A DNA stretch of 64,000 bases. It comes from Candidatus Omnitrophota bacterium (GTDB lineage Bacteria > Omnitrophota > Gorgyraeia > Gygaellales > Profunditerraquicolaceae). Below the pieces are notes generated by a model. It was not told the origin of the DNA. It ran no database searches and saw nothing but the letters and a program-made list of their open reading frames with translations. Position numbers and translations under genes: made by a program. Below, one piece after another: positions 40,158 through 60,104 of this stretch. Numbering within the stretch: the first letter of the stretch is position 1; each line of letters opens with the position of its first letter. The stretch is taken from contig JBAZKC010000001.1 in assembly GCA_041651035.1 (NCBI GenBank), positions 62,871 through 126,870 on the forward strand, read 5' to 3'.

Positions 40158-41366
40158 TTAAACACAGGCCTCTTGCCCGAACGGCGCTATGACTTTCTCA
40201 AGCATGCCATTCATATGGGCAAGGAACATTCCATAATTCGTAATCGGGACTCCCGCTGCCTGCGCGTAAGCTATCCTGCTCATCATTTCTCTCCTGTTAA
40301 GCATGCATCCTCCGCAGTGGATAACTAAGGCATAGCTGCTTAAGTCGGCAGGAAAATCGTAACCAGATACATACTCAACGATAACCCCGGGGAATCTTGA
40401 TTTTATCCACTCTGGGATAACAACCCTGCCTATATCATCGCCTACAGGATGATGGGTACAGGCTTCGGAAATTAAAACCTTTGCTCCCGGCTTTAATTTA
40501 TCTATGTGAGAAGCCCCCTCCACCAAAACATCCAAATCCCCTTTATATCTGGCGTATAATACGGAAAACGTGGTAAGGGGAATATCCTTAGGAACTGTTT
40601 TTCCTACTTTATCCAGTATCTGCGATTCCGTAATTATAAGCTGCGGATGAGATTTCAGGCTGCCGAGAGTTTTCCCCAACCCTTCTTCTTTTACCATCAT
40701 CACAGAACAGTCATTATCAAGAATATCCCTGATAGCCTGGACCTGCGGAAGCTTAAGGCGGCCCTTGGGGGCTTCCATATCTAACGGCGCTACCATCAGC
40801 ACCAGATCCCCGGGCAACAGCATATCCTTAAGTATGGTTTTCCTCTCGTAATCATCCGGCGAGAGCTCAACTATTTTCTTGCGTAATTCAACGACACCTG
40901 AACCCTTAAGCGCGCTTACGCATACGTAATTTATTTTTTTAGACGACAGGCCCTCTAAAAGGCCAGCATCAACACTGCCTTCATCCGTCTTATTGACCAC
41001 AACTAATAAAGGTATACCCCTGGCCTTGGTCTCTTTTATAAAATTAAGCTCGTAGTCTCCTAAGCACCCCGACCTTTCCACCAGCAGAAGAGCTACATCC
41101 GCCTTATTGAGGATCTTATATGCCTTTTTAACTCTCATATCCCCGACTTTTCCGGAATCGTCAATACCTCCGGTGTCTATAACCACAACAGGTCCTATAT
41201 CGTGTATTTCCATCGCTTTATAGACCGGATCCGTAGTAGTCCCCGGAAGATCTGAAACAATAGCTATATCTTGTCCGGTTATAGCGTTTATCAAAGTAGA
41301 TTTGCCGGTATTCCTCCTGCCGAAAATACCTATATGCATCCTGTTGCTTAAAGGTGTCTTGTCCAT
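40158..41366 (-). CDS. hydF: [FeFe]-hydrogenase maturation GTPase HydF
   Basis: 402 aa. G1 GRRNTGKST, G3 DTGG, and C-terminal cluster motif CTHHP...HCGGC. Confidence 0.85.
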   Translation of the reverse strand: MDKTPLSNRMHIGIFGRRNTGKSTLINAITGQDIAIVSDLPGTTTDPVYKAMEIHDIGPVVVIDTGGIDDSGKVGDMRVKKAYKILNKADVALLLVERSGCLGDYELNFIKETKARGIPLLVVVNKTDEGSVDAGLLEGLSSKKINYVCVSALKGSGVVELRKKIVELSPDDYERKTILKDMLLPGDLVLMVAPLDMEAPKGRLKLPQVQAIRDILDNDCSVMMVKEEGLGKTLGSLKSHPQLIITESQILDKVGKTVPKDIPLTTFSVLYARYKGDLDVLVEGASHIDKLKPGAKVLISEACTHHPVGDDIGRVVIPEWIKSRFPGVIVEYVSGYDFPADLSSYALVIHCGGCMLNRREMMSRIAYAQAAGVPITNYGMFLAHMNGMLEKVIAPFGQEACV

Positions 41367-41377
41367 TTCTCTCCTCC

Positions 41378-42463
41378 TTAATTTGACAAACGATGTTTTT
41401 TAATTGAATGGCCTATGGAATAATCTATAAAACGCCCGGCCAATCCCGCTTTTTCGCTCATACATAAAACGCATTTTTCCGACGTTTCGCTTATGCAGGC
41501 TTTACCAGGGTATATTTCATACAGGCTTTTATAGCGCGCGGGAGTAAAATTAGGCATAAGGACGTTGGCTCCGGATTTAAGCCCTTCTATCCTGTAATCC
41601 GCGCCCGCGCTGCCTAATGCCGTCGTTGCCGGCATATGCGCGTCTTTAGTAATTATGCGCGTTAAGGCGAGCACCTTTAGTGTTAGCTGCACATCCCCGG
41701 CTGCCTCATTTGCAAAACCCGTGCAAGGATGCGGTATAAACGGCCCTATCCCGATCATATCAAAATTATTTTTCTGCAAGAATAGAATATCCCTGGCTAG
41801 AGAATCAATGGTCTGTCCCCTCAAACCGACAAGTATGCCTGAACCGACCTGATATCCGAGAGAGAAAAGATTATCCAGGCATTTAAGGCGAGTCGCTAAC
41901 TGCCTGCCGGAATGCGCCTGAGAATAGATATCGCAATCAGTAGTTTCTATTTTTAGAAGATACCTGTCTGCCCCGGCCTCTCGCCATAATTTGTATTCAT
42001 ATAAAGATTTCTCACCTACGGAAAGAGTAACCGCCAGGTCAAAGCGCGCCTTTATCTCTTTTATAAGCCCTGCCAGCCAGATAGGCTCCAGTTCATCATC
42101 CTCCCCCGACTGTAAAACTACCGTCTTGACATTCATCGAGCTTAAGCAGGCGACAGCGCTGAGTATTTCATCAGCAGGCATTCTGTAACGGCCGGCTTTA
42201 GCGTTTTGATTATTTAAGCCGCAATAAAAACAACTGTTACCGCAATAATTGGAAAACTCAACTATACCTCTTAAAAAAATGCCTCTGCCTACAAATTTTT
42301 CCCTTACTTTATCGGCAAACAAAAACAGGCATTCTATATCATCTTTATCCTGTAGCAGGAGAAAGTGTTTTATCTCCTCAAGACTATCCTGCGGATCACT
42401 GTAAATTTTATCTAAGATACCTTCTAATGTTGCGGCTGAGCTAAACATAAGAATCCCTAGCAC
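41378..42463 (-). CDS. hydE: [FeFe]-hydrogenase maturation radical-SAM protein HydE
   Basis: 361 aa. CGNSCFYC radical-SAM motif and a C-terminal CX7CX2C. Confidence 0.85.
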   Translation of the reverse strand: MLGILMFSSAATLEGILDKIYSDPQDSLEEIKHFLLLQDKDDIECLFLFADKVREKFVGRGIFLRGIVEFSNYCGNSCFYCGLNNQNAKAGRYRMPADEILSAVACLSSMNVKTVVLQSGEDDELEPIWLAGLIKEIKARFDLAVTLSVGEKSLYEYKLWREAGADRYLLKIETTDCDIYSQAHSGRQLATRLKCLDNLFSLGYQVGSGILVGLRGQTIDSLARDILFLQKNNFDMIGIGPFIPHPCTGFANEAAGDVQLTLKVLALTRIITKDAHMPATTALGSAGADYRIEGLKSGANVLMPNFTPARYKSLYEIYPGKACISETSEKCVLCMSEKAGLAGRFIDYSIGHSIKKHRLSN

Positions 42464-43814
42464 CTTTATCTATCGCCTCAAAAAATACGCTTAATTCAGA
42501 CTGCGCGACAGCGCCTAAGCTGGCCCGCTCTTTTATTATCAGATCATAACCGGCTTTCCTGACGCCGGCTGAAGCAAAATCGTCAAGATATTCTTTTAAG
42601 GTAACCAGGGCGTTAAAACTGCATTTATGTTTTATCAAGCCCGGCTTTGCCAAATTCATAAAGGCTTCTCCGGTGCGCTCTTTTCTGTAACAGGCCGCGC
42701 AGAAACTGGGGATATATCCCTGCCCGATCAAAGCTCCAATTACTTCTTCAAGGCTGCGCTGGTCGCCGATACAGAATTGGACATTGGTATCGGCGTTATT
42801 ATCAGAAGAAGAATACCCGCCGGGAGATGTCCTTGACTCAGCGCTTATCTGCGATATACCGAAACCGCAAAGTTCATCCCGTAGATCCGCTGCCTCCCGC
42901 GTAGAAAGTATCATTCCTGTATACGGCACTGCCAGGCGCAGGACCGCTACTACCTTTCTAAATTCGTCATCTGATACCGGATGCGGAACCTTAAAACCCG
43001 TCCCTCCGGCAGGTTCAATCCTGGGTACGGAAATAGTATGGGGCCCGACCCCGAAGCGCCCCTCAAGATGCTCAACATGAGAAAGCAATCCCAGCGTCTC
43101 AAATTTATAATCATACAGGCCGTAAAGAACACCCATACCGATATCGTCTATTCCGGCCTCGTAGGCGCGGTCGATAGCATCTATGCGGTCATCCGGATCG
43201 CTCTTAGGCCCAGCCGGATGCATCAGGCGGTATGTCGGCTCATGGTATGTCTCCTGGAATAACTGATAAGTGCCGATACCGGAGTTTTTAAGTTTTCTAT
43301 ATTCATCTACCTTAAGCGGAGCGCAATTGACATTTACGCGCTTTATCGTATGGGCTCCAACATGAGTATCATAGATAACTCCCACTGCCTGGGTATAATA
43401 ATCTACGTCGCCAGCTTCTTCTCCTCCAAGTATAAGCATACGTTTATGGCCGCGCTTAAGCAGCCACTGTGTCTGCTGGCGTATTTCATCCATACTGAGC
43501 CGGCGCCTTTTTGTTACCGGGTTATCCGAGCGGAAAGCGCAATACAGGCAGCCGTTTACGCAAAAACTGCTGACATAAAGCGGGGCAAAAAGCACCACCC
43601 TTCTTCCGTATATGGCGTCTTTAACAAAATTTGCCGCGGCAAATATCTTTTGGATATATTCCGGATCCGTAACCATAAGCAAGGCGGCGCCTTCACTTAA
43701 AGTCAAACGGTTAAGCTTTCTGGCCTTATCCAGGATCCTATCCAGCAGGCGGCTATCAAATTTTGCCGCATCACTTAATAAATTATTTATTTTCTCTTGG
43801 TCTATATAAATCAT
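42441..43814 (-). CDS. hydG: [FeFe]-hydrogenase maturation radical-SAM tyrosine lyase HydG
   Basis: 457 aa. CVNGCLYC and a C-terminal CAACX22C motif. Confidence 0.85.
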   Translation of the reverse strand: MIYIDQEKINNLLSDAAKFDSRLLDRILDKARKLNRLTLSEGAALLMVTDPEYIQKIFAAANFVKDAIYGRRVVLFAPLYVSSFCVNGCLYCAFRSDNPVTKRRRLSMDEIRQQTQWLLKRGHKRMLILGGEEAGDVDYYTQAVGVIYDTHVGAHTIKRVNVNCAPLKVDEYRKLKNSGIGTYQLFQETYHEPTYRLMHPAGPKSDPDDRIDAIDRAYEAGIDDIGMGVLYGLYDYKFETLGLLSHVEHLEGRFGVGPHTISVPRIEPAGGTGFKVPHPVSDDEFRKVVAVLRLAVPYTGMILSTREAADLRDELCGFGISQISAESRTSPGGYSSSDNNADTNVQFCIGDQRSLEEVIGALIGQGYIPSFCAACYRKERTGEAFMNLAKPGLIKHKCSFNALVTLKEYLDDFASAGVRKAGYDLIIKERASLGAVAQSELSVFFEAIDKGARDSYV

Positions 43815-43838
43815 TTTATAACCAGCTTCTGATCTTAT

Positions 43839-44090
43839 TTATTCGGATTTACTTAAACCCGATTTTACTGAAACTCCGGCAATTTTACCGAGCTTACCGG
43901 TTAATGAGCCCAATTCATCAGTAGTAGTATCCACGATCAAAACAATAACACTTAACTCTTTCTTAACATGCGGGATGCCCATACGTCCGATAATTAATCC
44001 GGAAAATTCGGTAAGGATATTGTTTATGAGCGGTGCCGCTTTCTTACGATTATGAATAATAATTCCTACGAAACCTAAACGCTTTTCCAT
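43839..44090 (-). CDS. TM1266-like small ACT-fold protein (putative iron-only hydrogenase system regulator)
   Basis: 83 aa. GFVGIIIHNR...RMGIP...VIVLIVD...LTGKLGKIAGVSVK pattern. Sits between hydA and hydG, as is typical for this family. Confidence 0.6.
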   Translation of the reverse strand: MEKRLGFVGIIIHNRKKAAPLINNILTEFSGLIIGRMGIPHVKKELSVIVLIVDTTTDELGSLTGKLGKIAGVSVKSGLSKSE

Positions 44091-44306: not shown

Positions 44307-46058
44307 TTATTTGGCGTAAATCGGCCTGGCCTTATAATGCGCATGCAGAAGTTTTTCCGACTTCTCACCCAAAGGCTTGCCTAAAAATTCCTTATACAAT
44401 CTTTTTACATACGGATTCTGATGGCTGCAGCGAATCTGTTTCTGGTCATCATCCTGATACAGTGCCTGCGCCCTTTTAATTCTCAACTCATCTGTAACCA
44501 TATAAGGCTGGCCGCCGCCTCCAACGCAGCCGCCGGGGCAAGCCATAACTTCAATAAAATGATACGGCATCTCCTTACCGCTGCTTTTGGCTTCTCTAAC
44601 CTTATTTAAAATATACTCCACATTGCCTAATCCATGGGCAATGGCAATCTTGAGTTTTTTCCCTTTAATTCCAATCTCAGTCTCTTTAACCCCTTTTAAG
44701 CCGCGCACATTCTCAAATTCTACGTTCTTTAATTCTTCCCCGGTAACAAAATAATGCGCCGTCCTTAATGCCGCCTCCATTACGCCTCCGGTAGAACCAA
44801 AAATTACTCCTGCTCCGGCATATTCTCCTAAGATACTATCGCATTCCTCATCGGGAAGACTATTAAAATCTATACCCGCCTGTTTAATCATACGCACCAA
44901 CTCCCTGGTACAAAGAACGGTATCAATGTCCTGATAACCGGAAGCAAACATTTCGTCATTGCGGGTAATCTCATACTTCTTAGCGGTGCAGGGCATGATT
45001 GAAACCATAAAAATCTTAGCAGGGTCAATCTTATTCTTCTGGGCATAGTAAGTCTTAGACAAAACTCCCAATATTTCATGCGGAGATTTACAGGAAGAAA
45101 AATGTTCAATCATATCCGGATAGAATTTTTCCATAAAATCCACCCAGGAAGGACAACACGTAGTAATTAAGGGAAGCGGCCTGTTTCCATGTAAGAGCCT
45201 TTCTTCAAATTCACTGGCCTCTTCCATAATCGTAACATCCGCAGCAAATGAAGTATCAAAAACCGCGTGGAACCCTAAACGCCTTAATAAGGCATAAAGT
45301 TTTTTAGTAAAATTTTTGCCCACATAACCAAAGGCTTCGCCTATTGAAACCCTGACCGCCGGGGCAATCTGCACCACGCAATATTTATCCGGGTCCTGCA
45401 ATGCCTTCCAGGCCTGGGCAGTATGATCATGCTCGACAAAAGCCCCGGTAGGACAATGCGCTGAACACTGGCCGCAACGCACGCAGGGAGAATCCGCCAG
45501 CTGTATATCCCCGGCAGGAGAAATGCGGGTTTTCATCCCTCTTTCCAGAAATGACAACGCCCATACATCCTGCGCCTCCTGGCAAACATGCACGCACCGT
45601 CCGCAGAGAATACATTTTTTCGGGTCCAAATCAACAGCCTTTGTAGACCTATCTATCGGCAGATCCCTTAAAAACTGCGGAAATGATTCTTCTTTAATTC
45701 CGAAATCTGCGGTTAACTTCTGCAGTTCGCATTCGTTATTTCTGGCGCATTTAAGGCAATCATTAGGATGATTTGACAGGATTAGTTCAATCACCGTCCT
45801 TCTGATCTCGACAATCTCCGGGTCATGCGTTGTAATATCCATACCTTCTTCAAGCGGAGTACAACAGGAACGCAACATCTTATGCGAACCCTTATTTTTA
45901 ACAATGCAAATTCCGCAGGCTGCCGAAGCAGGCAAATCAGGATGCTTACAAAGAGTAGGGATTTTTATCTGCACTCTTTTAGCTGCTTCTAAAATGGTAG
46001 TTCCGGCTTCTACCCTTAATAAAATACCATTGATTTTTGCTTTCACTATTTTTGTCAT
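44307..46058 (-). CDS. hydA: [FeFe] hydrogenase catalytic subunit HydA (bifurcating-type, with N-terminal 2Fe-2S and 4Fe-4S domains)
   Basis: 583 aa. H-cluster motifs L1 TTCCPSW (DNA checked), L2 MPCTAKK, L3 EVMACPGGCVGG. N-terminal ferredoxin-like Cys clusters. Confidence 0.9.
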   Translation of the reverse strand: MTKIVKAKINGILLRVEAGTTILEAAKRVQIKIPTLCKHPDLPASAACGICIVKNKGSHKMLRSCCTPLEEGMDITTHDPEIVEIRRTVIELILSNHPNDCLKCARNNECELQKLTADFGIKEESFPQFLRDLPIDRSTKAVDLDPKKCILCGRCVHVCQEAQDVWALSFLERGMKTRISPAGDIQLADSPCVRCGQCSAHCPTGAFVEHDHTAQAWKALQDPDKYCVVQIAPAVRVSIGEAFGYVGKNFTKKLYALLRRLGFHAVFDTSFAADVTIMEEASEFEERLLHGNRPLPLITTCCPSWVDFMEKFYPDMIEHFSSCKSPHEILGVLSKTYYAQKNKIDPAKIFMVSIMPCTAKKYEITRNDEMFASGYQDIDTVLCTRELVRMIKQAGIDFNSLPDEECDSILGEYAGAGVIFGSTGGVMEAALRTAHYFVTGEELKNVEFENVRGLKGVKETEIGIKGKKLKIAIAHGLGNVEYILNKVREAKSSGKEMPYHFIEVMACPGGCVGGGGQPYMVTDELRIKRAQALYQDDDQKQIRCSHQNPYVKRLYKEFLGKPLGEKSEKLLHAHYKARPIYAK

Positions 46059-46060
46059 AT

Positions 46061-47803
46061 TTATTTTTTAAGAATTGCTTTAAATTTACAGACATCAAAA
46101 CAACGTCCGCACTTTATACATTTCTCCGAAACAATACTATAACCTGATTCCTTGTCCCCGCTTATCGCCTGGACCGGGCAGTTAATCATACACAATCCGC
46201 AGCGCTTACATTTATCTGCCATTATATTATAAGTCACTAGACTGCTGCATTTGCCCGCCGGGCATCTCTTATTTAAAATATGCTCATTATACTCAGGTTC
46301 AAAGTATTTTAAAGTAGAAAGTACCGGATTTGAAGCAGTCTGGCCCAACCCGCACAAAGATGCTTTCTGCATAGCCTGGGATATTCTCCTTAATTGCCCC
46401 AAATCCTCAGGCCCACCTCTTCCTTCAGAAATCTTTGTTAGATAATTAAGCATCTGAAAACCGCCGATACGGCAAGGCGCGCATTTCCCGCAGGATTCTT
46501 CCACGCAAAAGCCCAGATAAAATTTAGGGATATCCACCATACAATCATCGTCATCCATAACAATCATCCCGCCTGAGCCCATGATCGAACCTAACTTTTG
46601 CAGATTTTCATAATCAACCGGGGTGTCTAAAAGCGATTCGGGGATTACTCCTCCGCTTGGACCCCCAGTCTGTACTGCCTTTATCGGCTTGCCGGATAAT
46701 GTCCCGCCGCAGATATCCATTACAATTTCTCTCAAAGTCGCGCCCATGGCGATCTCAACTAATCCTGAATTTTTAACTTTTCCGGTTACCGCAAAAACCT
46801 TTGTTCCCTTTGAAGTTTGCGTGCCAATCTGGGCAAACCACTTGCCACCTTTTGAAACAATCACCGGTATATTGGCTAAGGTCTCAACATTATTAATGAC
46901 CGTGGGTTTTCCCCATAATCCTTTTACCGAAGGATACGGCGGACGCGGGTGGGGGGTTCCTCTCCTACCCTCAATAGAAGAGATTAACGCGGTTTCTTCT
47001 CCGCAAACAAAAGCCCCGGCACCTAACCTTATATCTAAATCTAAATTAAAAGAACTACCTAAAATATTCTTTCCCAATAATCCATAATCATAGGCCTGCT
47101 TGATTGCTTTATTAATCCTTTCAACTGCCAGAGGGTATTCCGCGCGGATATAGAAATATCCCTTGGAAGCCCCGATAGCAAAAGCAGCGATGATTAAACC
47201 TTCAATAACAGAATGCGGGTCACCCTCTAAAACGCTTCTGTCCATATAAGCGCCGGGGTCGCCTTCATCGGCGTTACAGATGACAAATTTATCGGTAGAG
47301 GCGACCTCGCGGGCAAAATTCCATTTCATCCAGGTTGGATATCCCGCGCCTCCTCTTCCCCGGATACCGCTAACCTTTATTTCTTCAATTAATTTTTGCT
47401 GGCCCAAATCACCAAGGACTTTCTTTAAAGCCAAATATCCGCCGCAGGCAATATATTCTTCAATACTCTCCGGGTCAATATTACCGCAATTACGCAAAAC
47501 AATCCTGAGCTGCTTGGCCTTGGACCTAAAAACCAGATCCTCAATAACTTTACCCTGGCCTAAAGTAGTATCAATTATTCTTTTAATATCCGCGTCCTGG
47601 ACATTAACATAGGTGATCTTATCCGGCAGGATCTTAATCACTAATCCCTTGTCATATACGCCGATATCAGCTACCCTGACTACTTGAATCTGCGAATGCA
47701 GATTGCCTTCCCGAAGATAATCCAATAGGCGGGTGTAAAACTCGCGCGTCTTATCCTGCCTCTTTAAATCCGTATCTTTTACTAAAATAACCTTAGTATA
47801 CAT
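46061..47803 (-). CDS. hydB: NuoF-like flavoprotein subunit HydB (NADH/FMN binding, C-terminal 2x[4Fe-4S])
   Basis: 580 aa. GRGGAGYPT, a 4Fe-4S CxxCxxC...C, and a C-terminal ferredoxin domain. Confidence 0.85.
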   Translation of the reverse strand: MYTKVILVKDTDLKRQDKTREFYTRLLDYLREGNLHSQIQVVRVADIGVYDKGLVIKILPDKITYVNVQDADIKRIIDTTLGQGKVIEDLVFRSKAKQLRIVLRNCGNIDPESIEEYIACGGYLALKKVLGDLGQQKLIEEIKVSGIRGRGGAGYPTWMKWNFAREVASTDKFVICNADEGDPGAYMDRSVLEGDPHSVIEGLIIAAFAIGASKGYFYIRAEYPLAVERINKAIKQAYDYGLLGKNILGSSFNLDLDIRLGAGAFVCGEETALISSIEGRRGTPHPRPPYPSVKGLWGKPTVINNVETLANIPVIVSKGGKWFAQIGTQTSKGTKVFAVTGKVKNSGLVEIAMGATLREIVMDICGGTLSGKPIKAVQTGGPSGGVIPESLLDTPVDYENLQKLGSIMGSGGMIVMDDDDCMVDIPKFYLGFCVEESCGKCAPCRIGGFQMLNYLTKISEGRGGPEDLGQLRRISQAMQKASLCGLGQTASNPVLSTLKYFEPEYNEHILNKRCPAGKCSSLVTYNIMADKCKRCGLCMINCPVQAISGDKESGYSIVSEKCIKCGRCFDVCKFKAILKK

Positions 47804-47824
47804 AAATTAGTTTTTTCCTCTTCT

Positions 47825-48172
47825 TTAAACTAATACCTCAAAAATACAATCATTGACCAGCATCTTGGAGATAACATGCTTTTCCAGTATCTTTATGGCT
47901 ACCTCTTTATTCACTGTGCCATAGACTACTGAAGGCAGGCCTACAACACTTACCTCCACCAGCGGCTCGGCATAACAGGAGCCTGCGCAGCCGCATTTCT
48001 TGATCTGGATCTGCAGGTTCCTCTTTTTTACTTCCTCAACAAAAAAATTGAAAACATCTTCGGCTCCGGCGGCAATCCCGCAACTACCCATGCCCACCTT
48101 AATCCAATCTTTGGGCTTATCAGTTGAGGCCTTATTCATCTTTTCTAAATCGCCCGGGGTTAACTTATTCAT
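47825..48172 (-). CDS. Thioredoxin-like [2Fe-2S] ferredoxin domain protein
   Basis: 115 aa with four Cys (GSCGI...KCGCAGSC). The same domain is fused to the N-terminus of the 1048-aa NuoF-like protein in the neighbouring operon. Confidence 0.6.
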   Translation of the reverse strand: MNKLTPGDLEKMNKASTDKPKDWIKVGMGSCGIAAGAEDVFNFFVEEVKKRNLQIQIKKCGCAGSCYAEPLVEVSVVGLPSVVYGTVNKEVAIKILEKHVISKMLVNDCIFEVLV

Positions 48173-48178
48173 AATCAG

Positions 48179-48652
48179 TTATTCCTCTTTAATATATTTG
48201 GATAAGATATCGGCAATCTCATCCTTTTTTACCTTACCGTATACTTTATTATCAATCATCACGACAGGGGCTAAACCGCAACAACCCAGGCACCTGACCA
48301 CATCCAGATGAAAAAGACCGTCCTTGGTAGTCCGGCCTTCTTTGACGCCTAAAATATTTTTTATTTCATCCAGGATTGCCGCCGCCCCCCGTAAATAACA
48401 GGCTGTCCCCATGCACAAGGCAATGCGATGCTTACCAGGAGGAACCAACTTAAAGAAATTATAAAAAGTAATTACCTCATAGATCCTGGCCAGCGGGACA
48501 TCTAACATCTTGGATAATTCCAATGACAACTCCCGCGGCACATAACCATGATGATTCTGGATCTCATGCAGGATCATGATTAAATTGCCTTCTTTGCCTT
48601 TCCATTGTTCTACAAGGCTGATCAATTCCGGATTAAGTTTCTTATGTTCCAT
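48179..48652 (-). CDS. hydC: NuoE-like [2Fe-2S] subunit HydC
   Basis: 157 aa. CMGTACYLRG...CLGCCGLAPV Cys pattern of the 24-kDa subunit family. Confidence 0.8.
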   Translation of the reverse strand: MEHKKLNPELISLVEQWKGKEGNLIMILHEIQNHHGYVPRELSLELSKMLDVPLARIYEVITFYNFFKLVPPGKHRIALCMGTACYLRGAAAILDEIKNILGVKEGRTTKDGLFHLDVVRCLGCCGLAPVVMIDNKVYGKVKKDEIADILSKYIKEE

Positions 48653-48789
48653 GGCTTAAGATTATTTTATTTCTATATATGATCTTTAAGTTCTTACTTT
48701 GTCTTTCTTAGAAGGGACTAAAGGCAAGAAACTCCAAAATCAGCGTAGAAATTTTACCATATCTCATCTAAAAAACAAGAGAAATCTTA

Positions 48790-50568
48790 TTAACGGGCTT
48801 CTTCTCTTTGAGTATATTGCGTATGCAATAAATGATGAGATTTCTCACCTAAGGGCCGGTCTAAAAACTCTTTGTATAAAGCCTGCACTGCCGGATTTTC
48901 ATGCGACTTTCTAAGAGGTTTATTTTTATCCTCCCGGTAAATTGCTTCCATCCTCTTTAACCTGATTTGGTTATCCGTAGGAATCGGCTGGCCTGCGCCT
49001 CCCAGGCATCCTCCGGGACAAGTCATAATCTCAATGAAGGCGTAAGGTGAATGGCCTGCTTTAACCTCCTCTAATAACGTACGCGCATTGCTTAAACTAT
49101 TAGCTACAGCCACCTTAAGTTTTAATCCGTCAATATCTACCTCGGCAACCTTAATGCCGTTTAGCCCCCTTAATTCCATAAAATCCAGCTTCTGGAGCTT
49201 TTTGCCTGTAAGCACTTCATAAGCTGTCCTTAATGCCGCCTCCATTACCCCTCCGCTTGCTCCGAAGATTACCGCAGCTCCTGTAGAGATGCCTAAAGGC
49301 TCATCAAAATCTTCACCTGCTAAGTTTACAAAATCAATCCCCGCCTCTTTAATCATAGAACTTGCTTCCCGGGTAGTCAAAACATAATCCACGTCGTAAA
49401 ATATTTCATCATCTTTAAGCTTCAATTTGTCTTTCCAATAACCAAATGCGCTTTTCATCTCAGGGCGCCTTGCCTCAAACTTCTTAGCGGTGCAGGGCAT
49501 GATCGAAACAACAACTATATTCCTGGGGTCAAGATGGCACTTCTCGGCATAATAAGTCTTGGCAATTGCCCCGAACATCTGCTGAGGGGATTTGCAGCTG
49601 GAGACGTGGCCCAATGCCTCCGGAAAAAAATGCTCGGCAAATTTTATCCATCCCGGAGAACAGGAAGTTATCATAGGAAGCAGCCCTTTATTTTTTATCC
49701 TGTCAATCAGTTCATAACCTTCTTCCATAATCGTCAGGTCAGCGGAAAATTGCGTATCAAAAACTTTTGTAAAACCTAATTTGCGTAAACTTTGGGCTAA
49801 TTTAGCCGTAACCAGGCTGCCTGCCGGCATGCCGAATTCTTCGCCGATTGCCGCCCTTACCGCAGGGGCAACCTGGACAACTACAAATTTCTTCGGGTCA
49901 GATAACGCCTGCCATACATCTTCTGTAGAATTTTTTTCAGTGATCGCGCCCGTAGGGCAAACTAAAAGGCATTGGCCGCAGTTAACGCATACGCTATTTG
50001 CCAGGCCAGAATCAAAAAATGTGGTTACCTTACTGGCCTTTCCGCGTCCGGAGAAATCAATCGCCTTAACAGTCTGGATAGCAGAACAAACAGCAACACA
50101 ACGGCCGCATAAAATACATTTATTAGGATCTCGAATAAGTGAGACGGAGGTAGTATCCAGGGGCAGCTCTATTTTTGTTGCCTTGGGAAAGCGCACTTCC
50201 TTTATTCCCATATCAGAAGCCAGTTTTCTTAATTCGCAGGTCTGGCTCCTGTCACAACAAAGGCAATCCTTAGGATGCCCGGCTAAAAGTAATTCTAAAT
50301 TTAATCTTCTGGCATTCCTTACGCGGGGGGTATTGGTAAAAATCTCCATCCCCTGGCTTACAGAAGTAACGCATGAACGCAATAAGGTCTTGGCTTTTTT
50401 TACCTCCACTAAGCAAATTGAACAGGCAGCCTCCTGGTTAATATCTTTTAAATAACACAGCGTGGGGATATTAATTCCGGCTTTTACGCAAGCTTCCAAA
50501 ATGGTCAAAGAAGCTTCGCATTCATAAGCCTTGCCGTCAATTTTTAAAGATATTTTTCTTTCTTCCAT
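48790..50568 (-). CDS. Second [FeFe]-hydrogenase-like catalytic subunit (HydA2) with L1 variant TSCSPGW
   Basis: 592 aa with the same domain layout as HydA. L2 MPCTAKK and L3 EIMTCPGGCLGG are intact. L1 reads TSCSPGW, with Ser (TCT) at the position aligned to the cubane-ligating Cys of CpI. The codon was verified on the DNA at 49657-49659. Confidence 0.8.
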   Translation of the reverse strand: MEERKISLKIDGKAYECEASLTILEACVKAGINIPTLCYLKDINQEAACSICLVEVKKAKTLLRSCVTSVSQGMEIFTNTPRVRNARRLNLELLLAGHPKDCLCCDRSQTCELRKLASDMGIKEVRFPKATKIELPLDTTSVSLIRDPNKCILCGRCVAVCSAIQTVKAIDFSGRGKASKVTTFFDSGLANSVCVNCGQCLLVCPTGAITEKNSTEDVWQALSDPKKFVVVQVAPAVRAAIGEEFGMPAGSLVTAKLAQSLRKLGFTKVFDTQFSADLTIMEEGYELIDRIKNKGLLPMITSCSPGWIKFAEHFFPEALGHVSSCKSPQQMFGAIAKTYYAEKCHLDPRNIVVVSIMPCTAKKFEARRPEMKSAFGYWKDKLKLKDDEIFYDVDYVLTTREASSMIKEAGIDFVNLAGEDFDEPLGISTGAAVIFGASGGVMEAALRTAYEVLTGKKLQKLDFMELRGLNGIKVAEVDIDGLKLKVAVANSLSNARTLLEEVKAGHSPYAFIEIMTCPGGCLGGAGQPIPTDNQIRLKRMEAIYREDKNKPLRKSHENPAVQALYKEFLDRPLGEKSHHLLHTQYTQREEAR

Positions 50569-53500
50569 CTAATTACCTTCTTTGATATCGCACCTCAAAC
50601 ATCTATTTGCTTCAGCGCAGGCCTGCTTTAAAGATAACCCCAAAGAAACCTCTCTAAAATTATTCTGCCTCTTTTTTATTTCCAGTTTCCCGCTCTCCTC
50701 TTTTTTAGATGCCTTTACCCCTAAGGGAACCTGGGATTTATATGAAAATTTACGTAAGAGCCTCGGGAACCTGTCTTCTTTACTTAAGGCCAGGTCAATT
50801 GCCCTGGCAGCTTTTTTACCATCAGACATTGCCTCAACCGCAGTCCCCGGCCCCATAACTAAATCCCCTCCGGCATAAACTTTATCCAAACTGGTCTTTA
50901 AATTAAACCTCCCTGCTTTAACTGTCCCATCCTGATTAATTAGAATGCCGCACTCCTTAATAAACTCCGCATCTACTCTTTCTCCGATTGCCAGAATTAC
51001 AGTATCACAGGGGATCTGAAAGACTTCATCAGTGGCAACCGGCTTTCTTCTTCCGGAGAGATCATAATCCCCTAAAGCCATTATCGTCGCGCTTATTCCA
51101 TTGACCTTGCCGCGGGCATCTGCCTTTATGGCTTTGGGGCCGGCTAAAAATATAAATTTAACACCCTCTAATTCCGCCCCCTTGATCTCATCTTTATTTG
51201 CCGGCATATCTTCTTTCTCTCTGCGATAAACAATAGTTACGTCACTACCTAACCTTAAAGCTGTACGCGCGGCATCAACCGCGACATTACCCGCGCCGAT
51301 TATTACCACCTTTTTCCCAATAGGCGGCTTTTTACCAACTGCTACATCTTCCAGGAATAAAATGCCTGATAATACCCCTTTAAGATTTTCTCCCGGAATG
51401 CCTAAACCCATACTCTTATAAGCCCCGGTTGCCAGAAATACGGCATCCGACTCTTTGATCTTGCTTTGTAAATTGCGCGCGCTGATTCTTTTGTTACATA
51501 AAATCTTCGCCCCCATCTTCTGCACAAAAGAAATTTCTTTCTTTAATACTGACTTTGGCAGCCGGTATTCCGGGATACCATAGCGTAAAACTCCCCCCGG
51601 CTCGGGATTAGCTTCATATATGACAACATCGTGGCCGAGACGGCTAAGATAAAAACCCGCAGTTAATCCGCTGGGCCCCGCGCCGATTATAGAAATCTTC
51701 TTGCCGGTTTTTGGTAATCTTTCCTTAAACAGGCCCTGGATAATTTTTGCTTCCTGCTTACCTTTATATATACTATCGGCAATATACCTGTGGATTTCTC
51801 CCTGCGAAACCGGATAATCAATATCCTCCCTGCGGCAGCGCATTTTACAATGAAAATGACAGATCCTGCCAGTGGAAGATGGAAAAGGGTTATCCCGGAT
51901 AATACACTCAAACGCCTCGGTTAATCTGTCTTCTTTAAATAATTCCAGAAAACCGGGGATATTCATATGCAATGGGCAGCTATTCTCACAAGGGGAGATA
52001 AAAAGTTCTGAACATATCCCGCCGTCACAACGCTGCTGTTGGATATGCTCCTCATATTCAGGCTTAAAATATCTAAGCGTAGTAAGCACAGGATTTGGCC
52101 CGGTTTGACCTAATCCGCAAAGGGCGGTATCTTTAATTGTAGCCCCTAAATCCTCTAAATCCTCTAAATCTTTCTGAGTAGCCTTACCTTTTGTGATATT
52201 AGTCAGGATGTTTAAGCTTTGGTTTAACCCTTCCCGGCAAGGAGTACATTTACCGCAGGATTCGCTGGTTGTAAATTCAGTAAAATAACGCGCCACATCA
52301 ACCATGCAATTATCATCATCCATTACTACCATGCCGCCGGATCCCATGATCGCGCCCAAAGAAGCCAGATTTTCATAATCAATCGGGGTATTAAATAATG
52401 ACGGGGGGATGCATCCTCCGGAAGGCCCGCCGCTCTGTAAGGCCTTAATCTTTTTATTTGTGCCGGTTCCTGCGCCGATATTATAAATAAGTGTCTGTAA
52501 AGTTGCTCCCAGGGGCAATTCCACCAATCCGGTATTTTTTATCTTGCCCACGAGAGAGAAAACTTTAGTTCCGGAACTATTCTGGGTTCCTGTCTGCGTA
52601 AACCAATCCGCCCCCTTGGCAATAACAACCGGGATATTGCTCCAGGTTTCGACATTATTAATATTAGTGGGCTTATCCAGATACCCTTTTTGCGCGGGAA
52701 ATGGCGGACGGGGAGTAGGCCTCCCCGAACGGCCAGCAAGAGAAGAAATTAAAGCCGTTTCTTCTCCGCAAACAAATGCGCCGGCACCTTCTACTAACTG
52801 CAGGTTAAAAGAAAACCCGCTATCAAATATATTCTCGCCCAAAAGCCCGTAATCCCGGGCATCAACAATTGCTTTTTTTATCCGCTCGACTGCCAAAGGG
52901 TATTCTGCGCGCACATAAATGATCCCGGAAGAAGCTCCCATCGCATATGCGCCGATAATCATTCCTTCTAAAAGCATGTGCGGGTCGCTTTCGCCTTCAT
53001 TACGGTTCATATACGCGCCAGGGTCTCCTTCATCAGCATTACAAATAATGTATTTTTCGCTTGAATTTTCCTTACGCATCAATTCCCATTTTATCCCGGT
53101 GGGAAAACCTGCCCCTCCCCTGCCCCTTAACTTTGATTTTTTTACTTCCGCGATCACAGCTTCCGGTTTAAGATCTCTTAGAACACTTAACAAGGACTGG
53201 TATCCACCTACGGCAATATATTCCTCTATATCTTCAGGGTTAATCAAACCGCAGTCCCTTAAAACAATTTTTTTCTGCCACTTAAAGAATGGGATCTTGT
53301 CCCAATCGGATATCTGCTTGAATCCTTTACCGTAAGAAACCTGTCCGGTAATATGATCCCAGGACTCAATTTTGCATAACGCTCTCCTGGGATTAATATT
53401 ATTACTACTCAACTCTTTAACTATAGATTCTACGTCTTTAGGTAAAACCGAGTTTAAAATAACCAGGGGTTTGCCGGGTAAGGAAATGTTAACTAACGGC

Positions 53501-53715
53501 TCTTGGGCGCAAAAACCAAAACAGCCTACTTTAGTAAGTAAGGCCGGAACTTTTCTTTTATCCAGAGCGGCGCGAAATGCCTGAAATACCTCCTCTGCGC
53601 CATTACCAATACCGCAGGTCCCCATCCCTACTGCGATACGTGGCTTATTCGGCAATATTTTCGCCAGGCCTTTTTCTCTGATTATCCTTAAATCTTCGGC
53701 GTTTTTGATTTTCAT
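50569..53715 (-). CDS. Fusion protein: thioredoxin-like [2Fe-2S] + NuoF-like (FMN/NADH, 4Fe-4S) + GltD/NfnB-like FAD/NAD(P)H oxidoreductase
   Basis: 1048 aa. N-terminal GMGTCGIG...KVGCFGFC, then GRGGAGFPT and CGKCTPCREG, then a GltD N-terminal Fe-S region (CxxxxC...C...CHFHCKMRC) and two dinucleotide folds (IIGAGPSGLTAG, VIIGAGNVAVDAART). Confidence 0.8.
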   Translation of the reverse strand: MKIKNAEDLRIIREKGLAKILPNKPRIAVGMGTCGIGNGAEEVFQAFRAALDKRKVPALLTKVGCFGFCAQEPLVNISLPGKPLVILNSVLPKDVESIVKELSSNNINPRRALCKIESWDHITGQVSYGKGFKQISDWDKIPFFKWQKKIVLRDCGLINPEDIEEYIAVGGYQSLLSVLRDLKPEAVIAEVKKSKLRGRGGAGFPTGIKWELMRKENSSEKYIICNADEGDPGAYMNRNEGESDPHMLLEGMIIGAYAMGASSGIIYVRAEYPLAVERIKKAIVDARDYGLLGENIFDSGFSFNLQLVEGAGAFVCGEETALISSLAGRSGRPTPRPPFPAQKGYLDKPTNINNVETWSNIPVVIAKGADWFTQTGTQNSSGTKVFSLVGKIKNTGLVELPLGATLQTLIYNIGAGTGTNKKIKALQSGGPSGGCIPPSLFNTPIDYENLASLGAIMGSGGMVVMDDDNCMVDVARYFTEFTTSESCGKCTPCREGLNQSLNILTNITKGKATQKDLEDLEDLGATIKDTALCGLGQTGPNPVLTTLRYFKPEYEEHIQQQRCDGGICSELFISPCENSCPLHMNIPGFLELFKEDRLTEAFECIIRDNPFPSSTGRICHFHCKMRCRREDIDYPVSQGEIHRYIADSIYKGKQEAKIIQGLFKERLPKTGKKISIIGAGPSGLTAGFYLSRLGHDVVIYEANPEPGGVLRYGIPEYRLPKSVLKKEISFVQKMGAKILCNKRISARNLQSKIKESDAVFLATGAYKSMGLGIPGENLKGVLSGILFLEDVAVGKKPPIGKKVVIIGAGNVAVDAARTALRLGSDVTIVYRREKEDMPANKDEIKGAELEGVKFIFLAGPKAIKADARGKVNGISATIMALGDYDLSGRRKPVATDEVFQIPCDTVILAIGERVDAEFIKECGILINQDGTVKAGRFNLKTSLDKVYAGGDLVMGPGTAVEAMSDGKKAARAIDLALSKEDRFPRLLRKFSYKSQVPLGVKASKKEESGKLEIKKRQNNFREVSLGLSLKQACAEANRCLRCDIKEGN

Positions 53716-54275
53716 TTCCTGCTCCTGCGCGGAGAAATACCTTTAACAATCTTACGCATTTTCTCCTTAGTCATGTGGCTATAAATATTCCCATCCACCT
53801 CAACTACCGGGGCCAGCGCGCACTGGCCAAAACAGGCAACGGTTTTAATCGTGAATTTATTATCCTTTGTTGTCAGAGATGGTTTGCCGTCTTGGCTGAA
53901 ATCATCTTCCTTAAAGCCAAATAAATTAATCAAAAAATCCAGCAGGTTTTTTGAACCGCGCGTATGGCAGGCTGTCCCGCGGCAGACAATAATCGAATGC
54001 TCTCCTTGCGGCTTAAGGTTAAAGAAGGCATAAAAAGTAATAATATTATAAATCCTGGATAAAGCTATGTTGGTTTCTTGGGCAATATACTCTAAGGTGC
54101 TTTGAGTAAGATATTTATGCTGATTTAATTTCTGGGCTTCTTCTAATATCCCCAAGATGCTTCCCGGCTTGCCTTGATACCTGGAAATAATTATATCTAA
54201 CTTTGTTTTGTCCTGTCCTAACCCTAAAAATTCTTCTTTTTTATCTTCAACCTTAATCATTTTATTTAGCTTCAA
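53712..54275 (-). CDS. NuoE-like [2Fe-2S] subunit
   Basis: 187 aa. CRGTACHTRG...CFGQCALAPV. Confidence 0.8.
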   Translation of the reverse strand: MKLNKMIKVEDKKEEFLGLGQDKTKLDIIISRYQGKPGSILGILEEAQKLNQHKYLTQSTLEYIAQETNIALSRIYNIITFYAFFNLKPQGEHSIIVCRGTACHTRGSKNLLDFLINLFGFKEDDFSQDGKPSLTTKDNKFTIKTVACFGQCALAPVVEVDGNIYSHMTKEKMRKIVKGISPRRSRK

Positions 54276-54910
54276 TTTTTTGTTACTTTAGTCTTTTCGA
54301 TGATATTAACGAAATAAATAAGATTCTCCAGCTCTATCTCAAGATTTACATTATTTATAACGCAGCCTTCTTTCTCTTTTAACTTTATAGGGGCAAAATT
54401 CAATATACCCTTTATGCCTCCGGAGATCATTTCATCCGCTACCGACTGAGCTCCTGCTTCCGGCACAGCGATAATACCAACCTTAATGTTCTGCTTTTTA
54501 ATAAACTCCTTAATGTCCTCCAGTGCCAAAACAGGGATATCCGCCTCAGGATTCAATTTAGCCGGATCATTATCAAAACAAGCGACGATCCTAATGCCTT
54601 CTTTTTCAAAACCTTTGTATTTTATTAAAGCGGTACCCAGTTTTCCTTTGCCAGCCAGAATAACCTTTTGCACCTCGTTCTTGCCGAGGATGTTATTCAT
54701 CTTGTCCAGTAATTCTTCTATTTTATAACCGCCTCTCTTATTGCCGGAAAGGCCGAAAATAGAAAAATCTTTCCTGACCTGGGAAGATGTTACATCAATG
54801 GCATCGGCGAGATTATCCGAGAAAACTTTTACAAATCCTAAGTCTTTCAAGCGATAAAGCGCGTTTTTATACCGGGATAGCCTTATAATGCAGTTTTTGT
54901 TTGTGATCAT
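54272..54910 (-). CDS. rex: Redox-sensing transcriptional repressor Rex
   Basis: 212 aa. N-terminal wHTH (RLSRYKNALYRL) and a Rossmann GKGKLG NADH-binding domain. Confidence 0.85.
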   Translation of the reverse strand: MITNKNCIIRLSRYKNALYRLKDLGFVKVFSDNLADAIDVTSSQVRKDFSIFGLSGNKRGGYKIEELLDKMNNILGKNEVQKVILAGKGKLGTALIKYKGFEKEGIRIVACFDNDPAKLNPEADIPVLALEDIKEFIKKQNIKVGIIAVPEAGAQSVADEMISGGIKGILNFAPIKLKEKEGCVINNVNLEIELENLIYFVNIIEKTKVTKN

Positions 54911-54911
54911 A

Positions 54912-54929
54912 TTGTTATTTTTTTCACAA
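54912..54929. promoter_or_regulatory. Rex-box-like palindrome TTGTTAT-TTTT-TTCACAA immediately upstream of the rex ATG
   Basis: Matches the 18-bp TTGTGAA-N4-TTCACAA Rex consensus at 16 of 18 positions. Confidence 0.5.
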
Positions 54930-54973
54930 TATATTTTAATTATAACGTCAGCTATATTTTTGTCAAGGATTTT

Positions 54974-54991
54974 TTGTGATTTATTTCACAA
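54974..54991. promoter_or_regulatory. Rex-box palindrome TTGTGAT-TTAT-TTCACAA
   Basis: Matches the Rex consensus at 17 of 18 positions. Lies 64-81 bp upstream of the rex start. Confidence 0.6.
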
Positions 54992-55533: not shown

Positions 55534-55536
55534 ATT

Positions 55537-58541: not shown

Positions 58542-58545
58542 AAAA

Positions 58546-59178: not shown

Positions 59179-59179
59179 A

Positions 59180-60100: not shown

Positions 60101-60104
60101 TTTC

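Follow-up and report, generated by a model that had tools for sequence, protein, structure and literature searches.

HydA2, encoded on the reverse strand at positions 48790..50568 of the window (the whole 64,000-nucleotide stretch of DNA analyzed here), is probably (at a rough probability of 85%) functional, activating H2 as one subunit of a multimeric, NuoE/NuoF-linked A3 [FeFe]-hydrogenase of a Candidatus Omnitrophota bacterium; its L1 motif is of the widespread, natural Ser type. Of the four ligands to the [4Fe-4S] part of the H-cluster, the one usually given by a Cys of L1 would come from Ser304 and the others from Cys359, Cys517, and Cys521, with Cys303 still relaying protons to the azadithiolate bridge. 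By homology to HydA1 of A. woodii, the H-cluster is expected to be assembled normally via the HydE, HydF, and HydG proteins encoded 5-10 kb downstream, and HydA2 to turn over H2 in both directions. The Ser-type L1 motif is itself already known and ordinary rather than new, being documented in the literature and present in the well-studied, active A. woodii enzyme.

The HydA2 protein and its L1 motif

The hydA2 gene is an intact open reading frame of 592 codons for an M3-type [FeFe]-hydrogenase catalytic subunit, identified by both Pfam and NCBIfam. The protein begins with an N-terminal [2Fe-2S] domain, a His-ligated [4Fe-4S] cluster, and two more [4Fe-4S] clusters, followed by the H-domain and a small-subunit-like C-terminus. 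Pfam matches include Fe_hyd_lg_C (1.2e-94), Fe_hyd_SSU, Fer2_4, and NADH-G_4Fe-4S_3, and the F-domain has its Cys and His ligands. HydA2 scores above the cutoffs of the NCBIfam models NF040763 (FeFe_hydrog_A6; 869.2 bits, cutoff 765) and TIGR02512 (515.9 bits, cutoff 405.95). The context expected for an M3-type HydA is also present, comprising the M3 F-domain, adjacent NuoE-like and NuoF-like genes, and the HydE/F/G maturases. By its sequence, HydA2 is thus an [FeFe]-hydrogenase catalytic subunit of group A (multimeric A3; "group A6" in NCBIfam), with H2 turnover and a CO/CN-ligated [2Fe] subcluster predicted.

The L1 motif of HydA2 (residues 299-307) is encoded at 49648..49674 on the reverse strand, where the reverse complement reads ATG ATA ACT TCC TGT TCT CCG GGA TGG and translates as MITSCSPGW, the same 9-mer found in A. 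woodii HydA1 (PDB 7Q4V). A sequence-only reading of this DNA had reported the same peptide and had correctly named 49658 as the middle base of the Ser304 codon (TCT, 49657..49659, reverse strand); its range of 49646-49674 locates the motif, but bases 49646-49647 are part of the next codon. HMMER aligned HydA2 residues 274-371 with residues 270-367 of CpI without gaps, placing Cys303 at CpI C299 (the proton relay) and Ser304 at CpI C300 (the cubane ligand), which upholds the proposed retention of the relay Cys and replacement of the ligand Cys by Ser. The position of Ser304 corresponds to Ser301 in A. woodii and Cys299 in T. kivui. With Ser at the CpI C300 position, a retained relay Cys, and an ungapped alignment, HydA2 qualifies on sequence grounds as a HydA with a Ser-type L1.

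Compared with the strict textbook motifs, HydA2 has TSCSPGW in place of TSCCPxW, with Ser substituting for one of the four canonical Cys ligands, and it matches L2 (MPCxxKxxE) and L3 (ExMxCxxGCxxG) in full, as had also been claimed. L2 (MPCTAKKFE; 49474..49500, reverse strand) contains Cys359 and Lys362, the counterparts of CpI C355 and K358, and L3 (EIMTCPGGCLGG; 48997..49032, reverse strand) contains Cys517 and Cys521, the counterparts of C499 and the bridging C503. All of the proton-transfer and second-sphere residues are kept in HydA2, namely E283, E286, R290, S323, C303, K362, M357, P328, and E365 (in CpI, E279, E282, R286, S319, C299, K358, M353, P324, and E361).

Serine and cysteine at the ligand position

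The serine is widely conserved. TSCSPGW is present in 120 of the 120 closest database homologs (68-100% identity), with L2 and L3 intact throughout, and Ser occupies the Ser304 position in 76 of 80 loci from species-representative genomes spanning about a dozen phyla. These 76 loci use all six Ser codons (AGC 23, TCG 20, TCT 15, AGT 7, TCC 6, and TCA 5), indicating purifying selection on the amino acid. Since TCT and TGT differ by a single base, the serine had been suspected to be a sequencing or assembly error or a recent private mutation from TGT. This explanation is refuted, as Ser is found in all 120 of these independent homologs from many metagenomes and is invariant in the clade of HydA2, the orthologs encode it by six different codons, and a 100%-identical protein is present on a 647-kb contig in NCBI. 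The comparison with orthologs that the sequence-only reading had called for thus finds TSCSP conserved, and TSCCP is not uniform among them.

In the wider family both residues occur, with 24 Ser-type and 102 Cys-type proteins among the top 150 cluster representatives. On a neighbor-joining tree of 201 H-domains, all 48 members of the clade that includes HydA2 have Ser, and Fitch parsimony places about 16 Ser/Cys switches, a count from an unbootstrapped distance tree that should be read as "many" rather than as exact. Switches are seen even between close orthologs, as in the pairs L060 (Cys-type) and L049 (Ser-type), which share 90% identity, and L079 (Cys-type) and L069 (Ser-type), which share 95%. 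Such repeated exchanges suggest that Ser and Cys are nearly interchangeable here, and in a HydA2-type background they look like near-equivalent alternatives. A search of the 201 aligned H-domains for a compensating Cys in the Ser-type sequences found none.

The closest functional reference is A. woodii HydA1 (PDB 7Q4V/7Q4W/8A5E), which has the identical motif LPMITSCSPGWIKF and matches HydA2 over its full length (634 bits; H-domain 54% identical). Both proteins have the same L1 9-mer, unaltered L2 and L3 motifs, an M3 architecture, and partners of the NuoE/NuoF type; they differ in that the A. woodii enzyme is from Bacillota rather than Omnitrophota and its HydB ends in a canonical B3/B4 ferredoxin-like domain, where HydB2 has a GltD/NfnB-like FAD/NADP(H) module. 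A. woodii HydA1 belongs to an electron-bifurcating HydABC(D) hydrogenase. Katsyv et al. (2023, JACS) modeled Ser301 as the H-cluster cubane ligand in place of Cys by cryo-EM, in maps of ~3 Å in which the Fe-O(Ser) bond is modeled rather than spectroscopically proven, and reported a typical H-cluster infrared signature and an activity similar to that of the Cys-type T. kivui enzyme. This enzyme supports the proposal, made from the HydA2 sequence, that Ser can be a natural H-cluster ligand, and we infer that the Ser oxygen binds iron in HydA2 as well, with a small effect on catalysis. T. kivui HydA1 (PDB 8A6T) and CpI (PDB 3C8Y, 4XDC) have the same fold, H-cluster environment, and proton-pathway residues but carry the canonical TSCCP with a ligand Cys (Cys299 in T. 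kivui, C300 in CpI). A full-text literature search for later work on a serine-ligated H-cluster yielded only Katsyv et al. (2023). No protein from the clade of HydA2 itself, and no enzyme with a GltD-fused HydB partner, is among the characterized proteins.

Earlier, Kertess et al. (2017; PMC5855289) had noted Ser at the cubane-ligand position in ~20% of putative HydA sequences and had written that no [4Fe-4S] cluster was then known to be coordinated by serine in nature. Reports on Melainabacteria (2013) and Hydrogenedentota (2024, mSystems, PMC11406978) mention the variant as well. TSCSP was also considered as a mark of group B hydrogenases and rejected, as the literature gives TSCCCP for that group. 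The engineered C115S exchange in Chlamydomonas HydA1 (CrHydA1, expressed-protein numbering) left the [4Fe-4S] site poorly occupied, prevented insertion of [2Fe], and abolished activity (Kertess et al., 2017; PMC5855289). CrHydA1 C115 appears to be the L1 ligand, since the 55-residue spacing from C115 to C170 equals that from C300 to C355 in CpI and the paper names C114 as its neighbor. Chemically the exchange is that of Ser304 in HydA2, at the equivalent ligand, but it is engineered and abolishes the cubane and activity, whereas the natural Ser-type motif is conserved and is active in A. woodii. Serine is thus not tolerated in every HydA background, and the protein context matters.

The inactivity of C115S could be taken to mean that HydA2 is no longer catalytic: with a degenerate H-cluster, it would act only as an electron relay or sensor, and the NADP(H)-binding HydB2 would be its partner in a complex resembling a transhydrogenase. 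HydB2 has an NAD(H) site and a likely NADP(H) site, so NADH and NADPH might conceivably react without hydrogen, and the modules are also found, without an H-cluster, in the known Nfn-Bfu/Stn enzymes. However, L2, L3, the bridging Cys, Lys362 (a CN- contact), the Met residues, and the proton pathway are ~100% kept across Ser-type sequences down to ~55% identity, which would not be expected in the absence of an H-cluster; the positions equivalent to CpI E279, E282, R286, S319, C299, K358, M353, P324, S323, and E361 are 92-100% conserved. Given also that A. woodii HydA1 is an active hydrogenase with the same motif and that HydA2 lies above the NCBIfam hydrogenase cutoff, we regard a loss of catalysis as highly improbable, and the non-catalytic redox subunit proposed by the sequence-only reading finds no support.

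The ligands could also be shifted in register, with Cys303 ligating the cubane and Ser or water relaying protons. This would agree with the suggestion by Kertess et al. (2017) that the neighboring Cys may substitute as a ligand in C115A, and the resolution of the cryo-EM maps is too low for its strict exclusion, but Ser301 was modeled as the ligand by Katsyv et al. (2023). There is likewise no indel in the motif alignment, in which P, G, and W remain in register. Model enzymes without the Cys relay (C299/C169 variants) lose much of their activity, whereas A. woodii HydA1 is about as active as the Cys-type enzyme of T. kivui. A register shift is therefore quite improbable.

If Ser304 does serve as a ligand in a catalytic HydA2, the substitution could still be adaptive, tuning the potential or bias of the [4Fe-4S]H cluster, or its inactivation by O2 or redox state, to particular partners or niches. 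Oxygen ligation generally alters cluster potentials, and Ser is invariant in the 48-member HydA2 clade. The residue just before the first L3 Cys also co-varies mildly, being Ala in 84% of Cys-type sequences and A, C, G, or T in Ser-type sequences. Other exchanges of cubane ligands in CrHydA1 (C170S/D and C362S/D) shift the ratio of H2 evolution to uptake (Kertess et al., 2017). Against such tuning, Ser-type HydA proteins are paired with three different HydB architectures (GltD-fused 42, canonical B3/B4 22, and NuoF-only 7), and the switches between 90-95% identical orthologs look nearly neutral. A strongly co-varying residue was sought in the 201 aligned H-domains and none was found, the largest frequency difference being 0.66 at surface-like positions. 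Infrared signatures were unaffected and activities similar in the comparison of Katsyv et al. (2023), so the altered catalytic bias that had been proposed is not borne out, and adaptive tuning seems unlikely.

Partner subunits and gene context

The gene upstream of hydA2, hydB2 (50569..53715, reverse strand), encodes a 1048-residue fusion with Pfam matches to Complex1_51K, NADH_4Fe-4S, Fer4_20, and Pyr_redox_2. It comprises a NuoF/BfuB-type FMN-NAD(H) core (residues ~26-572), a DPD-II 2x[4Fe-4S] domain (561-651), and an NfnB/GltD-like FAD/NADP(H) module (574-1043). The best PDB matches to residues 26-572 are the BfuB subunits 9n5u_B (646 bits), 7t2r_B (627 bits), and 7q4v_B (591 bits), and those to the second half are the GltD-like modules 9bov_A, 9n5u_A, 8oh5_C, and 5jca_L, with residues 574-1043 matching residues 102-567 of 9bov_A at 376 bits. 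A GAGNVA (GxGxxA) dinucleotide-binding motif at residues 807-812 (51280..51297, reverse strand) belongs to a type for which a preference for NADP(H) has been proposed (Kremp 2020). The C-terminal B3/B4 ferredoxin-like domain, the proposed ferredoxin site, is absent from HydB2, in which Fer4_20 and Pyr_redox_2 follow the NuoF [4Fe-4S] region; tblastn with the HydB1 C-terminus found no match beside GltD-fused loci. Relative to canonical electron-bifurcating HydABC (Bfu family, FeFe type), the locus has the BfuB/BfuC core but not the ferredoxin-like domain of HydB. The third subunit, HydC2 (53712..54275, reverse strand), is NuoE-like, with a thioredoxin-fold [2Fe-2S] domain (Pfam 2Fe-2S_thioredx, 4.5e-41) and Cys98, 103, 148, and 152.

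This arrangement resembles the sub-type I BfuABC of Hydrogenedentota and other phyla, a family known from bioinformatics alone (mSystems 2024, PMC11406978), in which BfuB has DPD_II and an FAD/NAD(P)-binding domain in place of B3/B4 and the M3a-type BfuA commonly has Ser at P1 position 5. The same pairing of HydA with a GltD-fused HydB occurs at 42 of 80 related loci. What sets the present locus apart is a rex gene with putative Rex boxes upstream, together with a canonical HydABC operon of the Cys type in tandem. Similarity also extends to the electron-bifurcating transhydrogenases Stn and Nfn-Bfu (NfnABC; PDB 8OH5, 9BOV, 9N5U), which have a close BfuB/BfuC core (the 9n5u_B chain is NfnB) and a homologous GltD-like NADP(H) module. 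In those enzymes the module is located on a NuoG-like BfuA without an H-cluster (StnC joins GltD to a NuoG-like domain; Kremp 2020), whereas here it is on BfuB and BfuA is a true HydA. The locus was also considered as an Stn (an Nfn of the Sporomusa type) whose HydA-like subunit had degenerated, a reading that was rejected, as StnC is not HydA-like and GltD is here on the NuoF subunit. A link of Ser-type L1 exclusively to GltD-fused HydB was likewise rejected, given its occurrence with canonical B3/B4 and NuoF-only HydB. A literature search for a characterized hydrogenase with a GltD-fused HydB found none.

Tentatively, a complex of HydC2, HydB2, and HydA2, under putative Rex control, might couple H2 to NAD(H) at the FMN and to NADP(H) at the Nfn-like FAD, with the NADP(H) module standing in for the ferredoxin-binding B3/B4 domain. 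It could be a ferredoxin-independent H2:NAD+/NADP+ bifurcating/confurcating enzyme or have two flavin bifurcation sites, an activity never demonstrated for a hydrogenase.

The gene order is rex-hydC2-hydB2-hydA2, and the reading frames overlap or abut, suggesting a single operon. The first gene, rex (54272..54910, reverse strand), encodes a redox-sensing repressor (NCBIfam NF003996, 241 bits, cutoff 138). A putative control region at 54912..54991 (reverse strand), identified by consensus matches only, contains a perfect sigma-70 consensus (TTGACA-16-TATAAT, 54966..54939) with Rex-box-like palindromes on either side at 54912-54929 and 54974-54991. Adjacent is a second, canonical hydrogenase operon (44307..48652), which, like the maturation genes that follow, lies on the reverse strand. 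It encodes HydC1 (48179-48652), a small [2Fe-2S] protein (47825-48172), HydB1 (46061-47803), which has a C-terminal 2x[4Fe-4S] domain of the B3/B4 type, and HydA1 (44307-46058). The L1 motif of the latter is of the Cys type (LITTCCPSW, 45144-45170), as the sequence-only reading had it. The H-cluster maturation genes (40158..44090) all score above their NCBIfam equivalog cutoffs and comprise a TM1266-family regulator (43839-44090; 98, cutoff 61), hydG (42441-43814; 489, cutoff 312), hydE (41378-42463; 321, cutoff 255), and hydF (40158-41366; 530, cutoff 326). The presence of hydG, hydE, and hydF in the same gene cluster as hydA2 was counted in favor of a functional HydA2.

Implications for [FeFe]-hydrogenases

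For genome annotation, TSCSPxW should be taken neither for a broken H-cluster nor for an assembly error; this form of L1 is common and functional in multimeric A3-type [FeFe]-hydrogenases. The four-Cys motif definition of [FeFe]-hydrogenases, as usually written, is too narrow, since the same deviation is found in the bona fide A. woodii HydA1 and reportedly in ~20% of the family. The less ordinary part of this locus is the NuoF-GltD partner subunit, already flagged in the literature on bioinformatic grounds only, which is the more promising for new biochemistry. The Ser-type motif also poses a modest puzzle in enzymology, as Chlamydomonas HydA1 engineered to carry the exchange is inactive but natural Ser-type enzymes work, raising the question of what makes a background permissive. 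The repeated switching between Ser and Cys, the very close natural Ser/Cys pairs, and the lack of a compensating Cys provide material for this question, and the natural pairs L049/L060 and L069/L079 offer a clean comparison for the effect of a serinate ligand on the H-cluster.

Ser304 in the H-cluster motif L1 of HydA2

The hydA2 gene is an uninterrupted 592-aa ORF on the minus strand (48790..50568) with the L1 codons in frame: the reverse complement of 49674..49648, ATG ATA ACT TCC TGT TCT CCG GGA TGG, encodes the variant L1 MITSCSPGW (minus strand; HydA2 residues 299-307). The L2 (MPCTAKKFE, 49474-49500) and L3 (EIMTCPGGCLGG, 48997-49032) motifs, both on the minus strand, are intact. HMMER aligns HydA2 274-371 without gaps to residues 270-367 of the Clostridium pasteurianum hydrogenase CpI, pairing Cys303 with the proton relay C299 and Ser304 (codon TCT, 49659..49657, minus strand) with C300, the H-cluster cubane ligand. 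The L1 of the window's own HydA1 reads LITTCCPSW (45144-45170, within 44307..46058). By direct re-reading and alignment, the sequence-only reading had described both HydA motifs, the CpI alignment and the intact L2 and L3 accurately.

That reading left room for a sequencing error or a private mutation, either of which would be indicated by orthologs uniformly carrying TSCCP. The opposite was seen: TSCSPGW occurs in 120/120 of the best homologues (68-100% identity, independent metagenomes), L2 in 120/120, and L3 was detected in 119/120. In a genome scan using one genome per species, with the best 80 loci kept (54-84% identity), the ligand position is Ser in 76 loci and Cys in 4. The 80 loci are spread over Omnitrophota, Ignavibacteriota, Bacteroidota, Spirochaetota, the PVC group, Bacillota (including Neomoorella stamsii and Acetivibrio mesophilus), Smithella, Syntrophorhabdales, Dehalococcoidia, Armatimonadota, Coprothermobacterota and Caldisericota. 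All six Ser codons are in use among the 76 Ser-type loci (AGC 23, TCG 20, TCT 15, AGT 7, TCC 6, TCA 5), indicating that selection holds the amino acid while the codon drifts. A protein 100% identical to HydA2 is also recorded on a 647-kb Candidatus Omnitrophota contig. The homologue, locus and codon data contradict a sequencing error at Ser304, the probability of which is vanishingly small, and they speak equally against a private mutation.

HydA2 as a hydrogenase and its Ser-type relatives

HydA2 has an M3 architecture, consisting of Fer2_4, a His-ligated [4Fe-4S] region, two ferredoxin-type [4Fe-4S] sites, the H-domain and a small-subunit-like tail. It scores 869 against the NCBIfam family "NADH-dependent [FeFe] hydrogenase, group A6" (curated cutoff 765), also exceeds the TIGR02512 curated cutoff, and has complete F-domain ligands. 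The residues E279, E282, R286, S319, C299, S323, P324, M353, C355, K358 and E361 (CpI numbering) are all present, and are 92-100% kept in Ser-type relatives, equal to Cys-type sequences. The same gene cluster encodes the maturases HydG, HydE and HydF and a TM1266-family regulator (40158-44090). As judged from sequence, this pattern of residues and genes is that of a working H-cluster site rather than a decaying one. It contradicts the suggestion that HydA2 is a non-catalytic subunit, as does an active enzyme with the identical motif, making that role highly improbable.

This enzyme, A. woodii HydA1 (7Q4V/7Q4W/8A5E; Katsyv et al. 2023), is the top PDB match of HydA2 (634 bits) and reads LPMITSCSPGWIKF, with an identical L1 9-mer. 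Katsyv et al. modelled its Ser301 as a cubane ligand and saw a typical H-cluster infrared signature and an activity similar to that of the Cys-type T. kivui enzyme. The Ser-type L1 is thus an already known feature, and the novelty implied earlier does not survive a look at the literature either. In alignments, about 20% of putative hydrogenases have Ser here (Kertess et al. 2017, PMC5855289), TSCSPGW has been remarked on in Melainabacteria (Di Rienzi 2013), and Ser at P1 position 5 is "common" in four of five A3 sub-types in Hydrogenedentota (PMC11406978). Among our best 150 cluster representatives at 50% identity, 24 are Ser-type (TSCSP or SSCSP) and 102 Cys-type (TSCCP, SSCCP or TTCCP), in agreement with the figure of Kertess et al. 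The top match of the representative search was P0121, a 4122-aa database protein from outside the window with seven tandem HydA H-domains (motifs TSCCA[SG]W / MPCTVKK[TV]E), which may be either a genuine giant protein with many H-domains or an artefact of gene modelling or assembly.

What is directly observed is the sequence of HydA2, how well it is conserved, and its homology to an active enzyme of solved structure. Mechanistically, Ser304 would supply the fourth cubane ligand, as serinate or a short Fe-O contact, with the others coming from Cys359, Cys517 and Cys521, the last of which would bridge to the [2Fe] site. Cys303 would relay protons to the adt amine via the conserved E283/S323/E286/R290 path; a register shift that made Cys303 the cubane ligand is contradicted by the sequence and comparative data and is very unlikely. 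Ligation by Ser304 has one main caveat: in Chlamydomonas HydA1, engineering the corresponding change, C115S, cost the enzyme its cubane and all of its activity (Kertess et al. 2017, PMC5855289). C115 is the ligand next to C114 (PMC5855289), and we equate it with the L1 ligand because its 55-residue spacing from C170 matches that of C300-C355 in CpI. Protein context evidently matters for Ser tolerance. The A. woodii HydA1 maps are cryo-EM models in which the Fe-O bond is modelled, which is not spectroscopic proof.

Exchange of Ser and Cys among relatives

We aligned 201 H-domains with identifiable L1-L3, drawn from the loci, the cluster representatives, both window paralogues, A. woodii and T. 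kivui. A neighbour-joining tree, not bootstrapped, places HydA2 within a pure-Ser clade of 48 and requires about 16 Ser/Cys changes by parsimony, a number that is indicative only. More robust are two natural orthologue pairs among the species-level loci, which record very recent switches: the H-domains of Cys-type L060 (TGC) and Ser-type L049 (Herbivorax sp., AGC) are 90% identical, and those of Cys-type L079 (TGC) and Ser-type L069 (TCT) 95%. These pairs could act as natural experiments on Ser versus Cys as ligand.

The two Ser codon families dominate different groups of loci, with AGY in 20/22 Ser-type HydA adjoining canonical HydB (with the ferredoxin-like B3/B4 domain) and TCN in 35/42 adjoining GltD-fused HydB. 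A single step separates either family from TGY (Cys), but two steps lie between the families, a pattern consistent with lineages having passed through Cys repeatedly. The gene immediately upstream of Ser-type HydA encodes GltD-fused HydB in 42 cases, canonical B3/B4 HydB in 22 and NuoF-only HydB in 7, so Ser-type HydA has no single fixed partner. A weighted column-by-column comparison of the 201 H-domains found no compensating cysteine or strong co-varying residue; the single active-site-adjacent signal is the residue preceding the first L3 Cys, which is Ala in 84% of Cys-type sequences and A/C/G/T in Ser-type. Together with the switches and the close pairs, these observations argue that Ser and Cys are close to interchangeable in this protein background. 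Adaptive tuning of potential or catalytic bias by the Ser ligand has little support and is unlikely, and an altered bias was not borne out. Of the earlier interpretation, the natural Ser at the cubane-ligand position stands; error, a non-catalytic subunit, altered bias and novelty fall away.

Tandem operons and the HydB2 fusion

The region 44307-54910 holds two tandem hydrogenase operons. The first, on the minus strand, comprises the overlapping or abutting ORFs rex (54272-54910), hydC2 (53712-54275; NuoE-like, four Cys), hydB2 (50569-53715; a 1048-aa fusion) and hydA2. Directly downstream lies a canonical operon of hydC1, a small [2Fe-2S] protein gene (HydD), hydB1 with B3/B4 and Cys-type hydA1, followed by hydG/E/F. 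The tandem pair recurs in several other Omnitrophota-like genomes (L001, L002, L004, L031). Two unassigned ORFs (38930-39364 and 39381-40139) separate hydF from the gene for a PAS-domain sensor histidine kinase (37251-38933, minus strand), about 1.2 kb downstream. Directly upstream of rex, 55018-62012 (minus strand) carries a group-4 membrane-bound [NiFe]-hydrogenase-like gene set (Hyf/Mbh/complex-I-like), with a NuoB-like gene, a fused NuoC/D-like large subunit and HyfB/HyfF/NuoH-like membrane subunits.

A putative promoter upstream of rex (perfect sigma-70 consensus TTGACA-16-TATAAT, 54966..54939, minus strand) is flanked on both sides, within 54912-54991, by Rex-operator-like palindromes, TTGTGATTTATTTCACAA (54974-54991, one mismatch) and TTGTTATTTTTTTCACAA (54912-54929, two mismatches). 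This arrangement of consensus matches suggests NADH-responsive autoregulation of the rex operon.

HydB2 26-572 matches BfuB, the HydB-type subunit of characterised bifurcating enzymes (9n5u_B, 646 bits; 7t2r_B, 627; 9bov_B, 597; A. woodii HydB, 591 bits). HydB2 lacks the usual B3/B4 ferredoxin-like domain and has in its place an NfnB/GltD-like 2x[4Fe-4S]/FAD/NADP(H) module: the matches of residues 574-1043 are GltD-like FAD/NADP(H) modules, both from Nfn-Bfu/Stn BfuA subunits (9bov_A, 9n5u_A, 8oh5_C) and from NfnI (5jca_L). Within the C-terminal half are the eight Cys expected for two [4Fe-4S] clusters, along with a GxGxxA motif (GAGNVA, aa 807-812). An identity as Stn, the Sporomusa-type Nfn transhydrogenase, was considered and rejected: in Stn the GltD-like module is fused to the NuoG-like BfuA and there is no H-cluster, whereas here it is fused to the NuoF-like HydB2.

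The same fusion lies immediately upstream of Ser-type HydA in 42 of the best 80 related loci. Its architecture is that of the "sub-type I BfuABC" of the Hydrogenedentota study, known from bioinformatics only, for which a second flavin bifurcation centre has been speculated (PMC11406978); our literature search found no biochemical characterisation of a hydrogenase with a GltD-fused HydB. This hydrogenase may plausibly couple H2 to NAD(H) and NADP(H) alike. What interest remains in the locus attaches to the NuoF-GltD partner subunit and to the natural Ser/Cys pairs, which could serve for tests.
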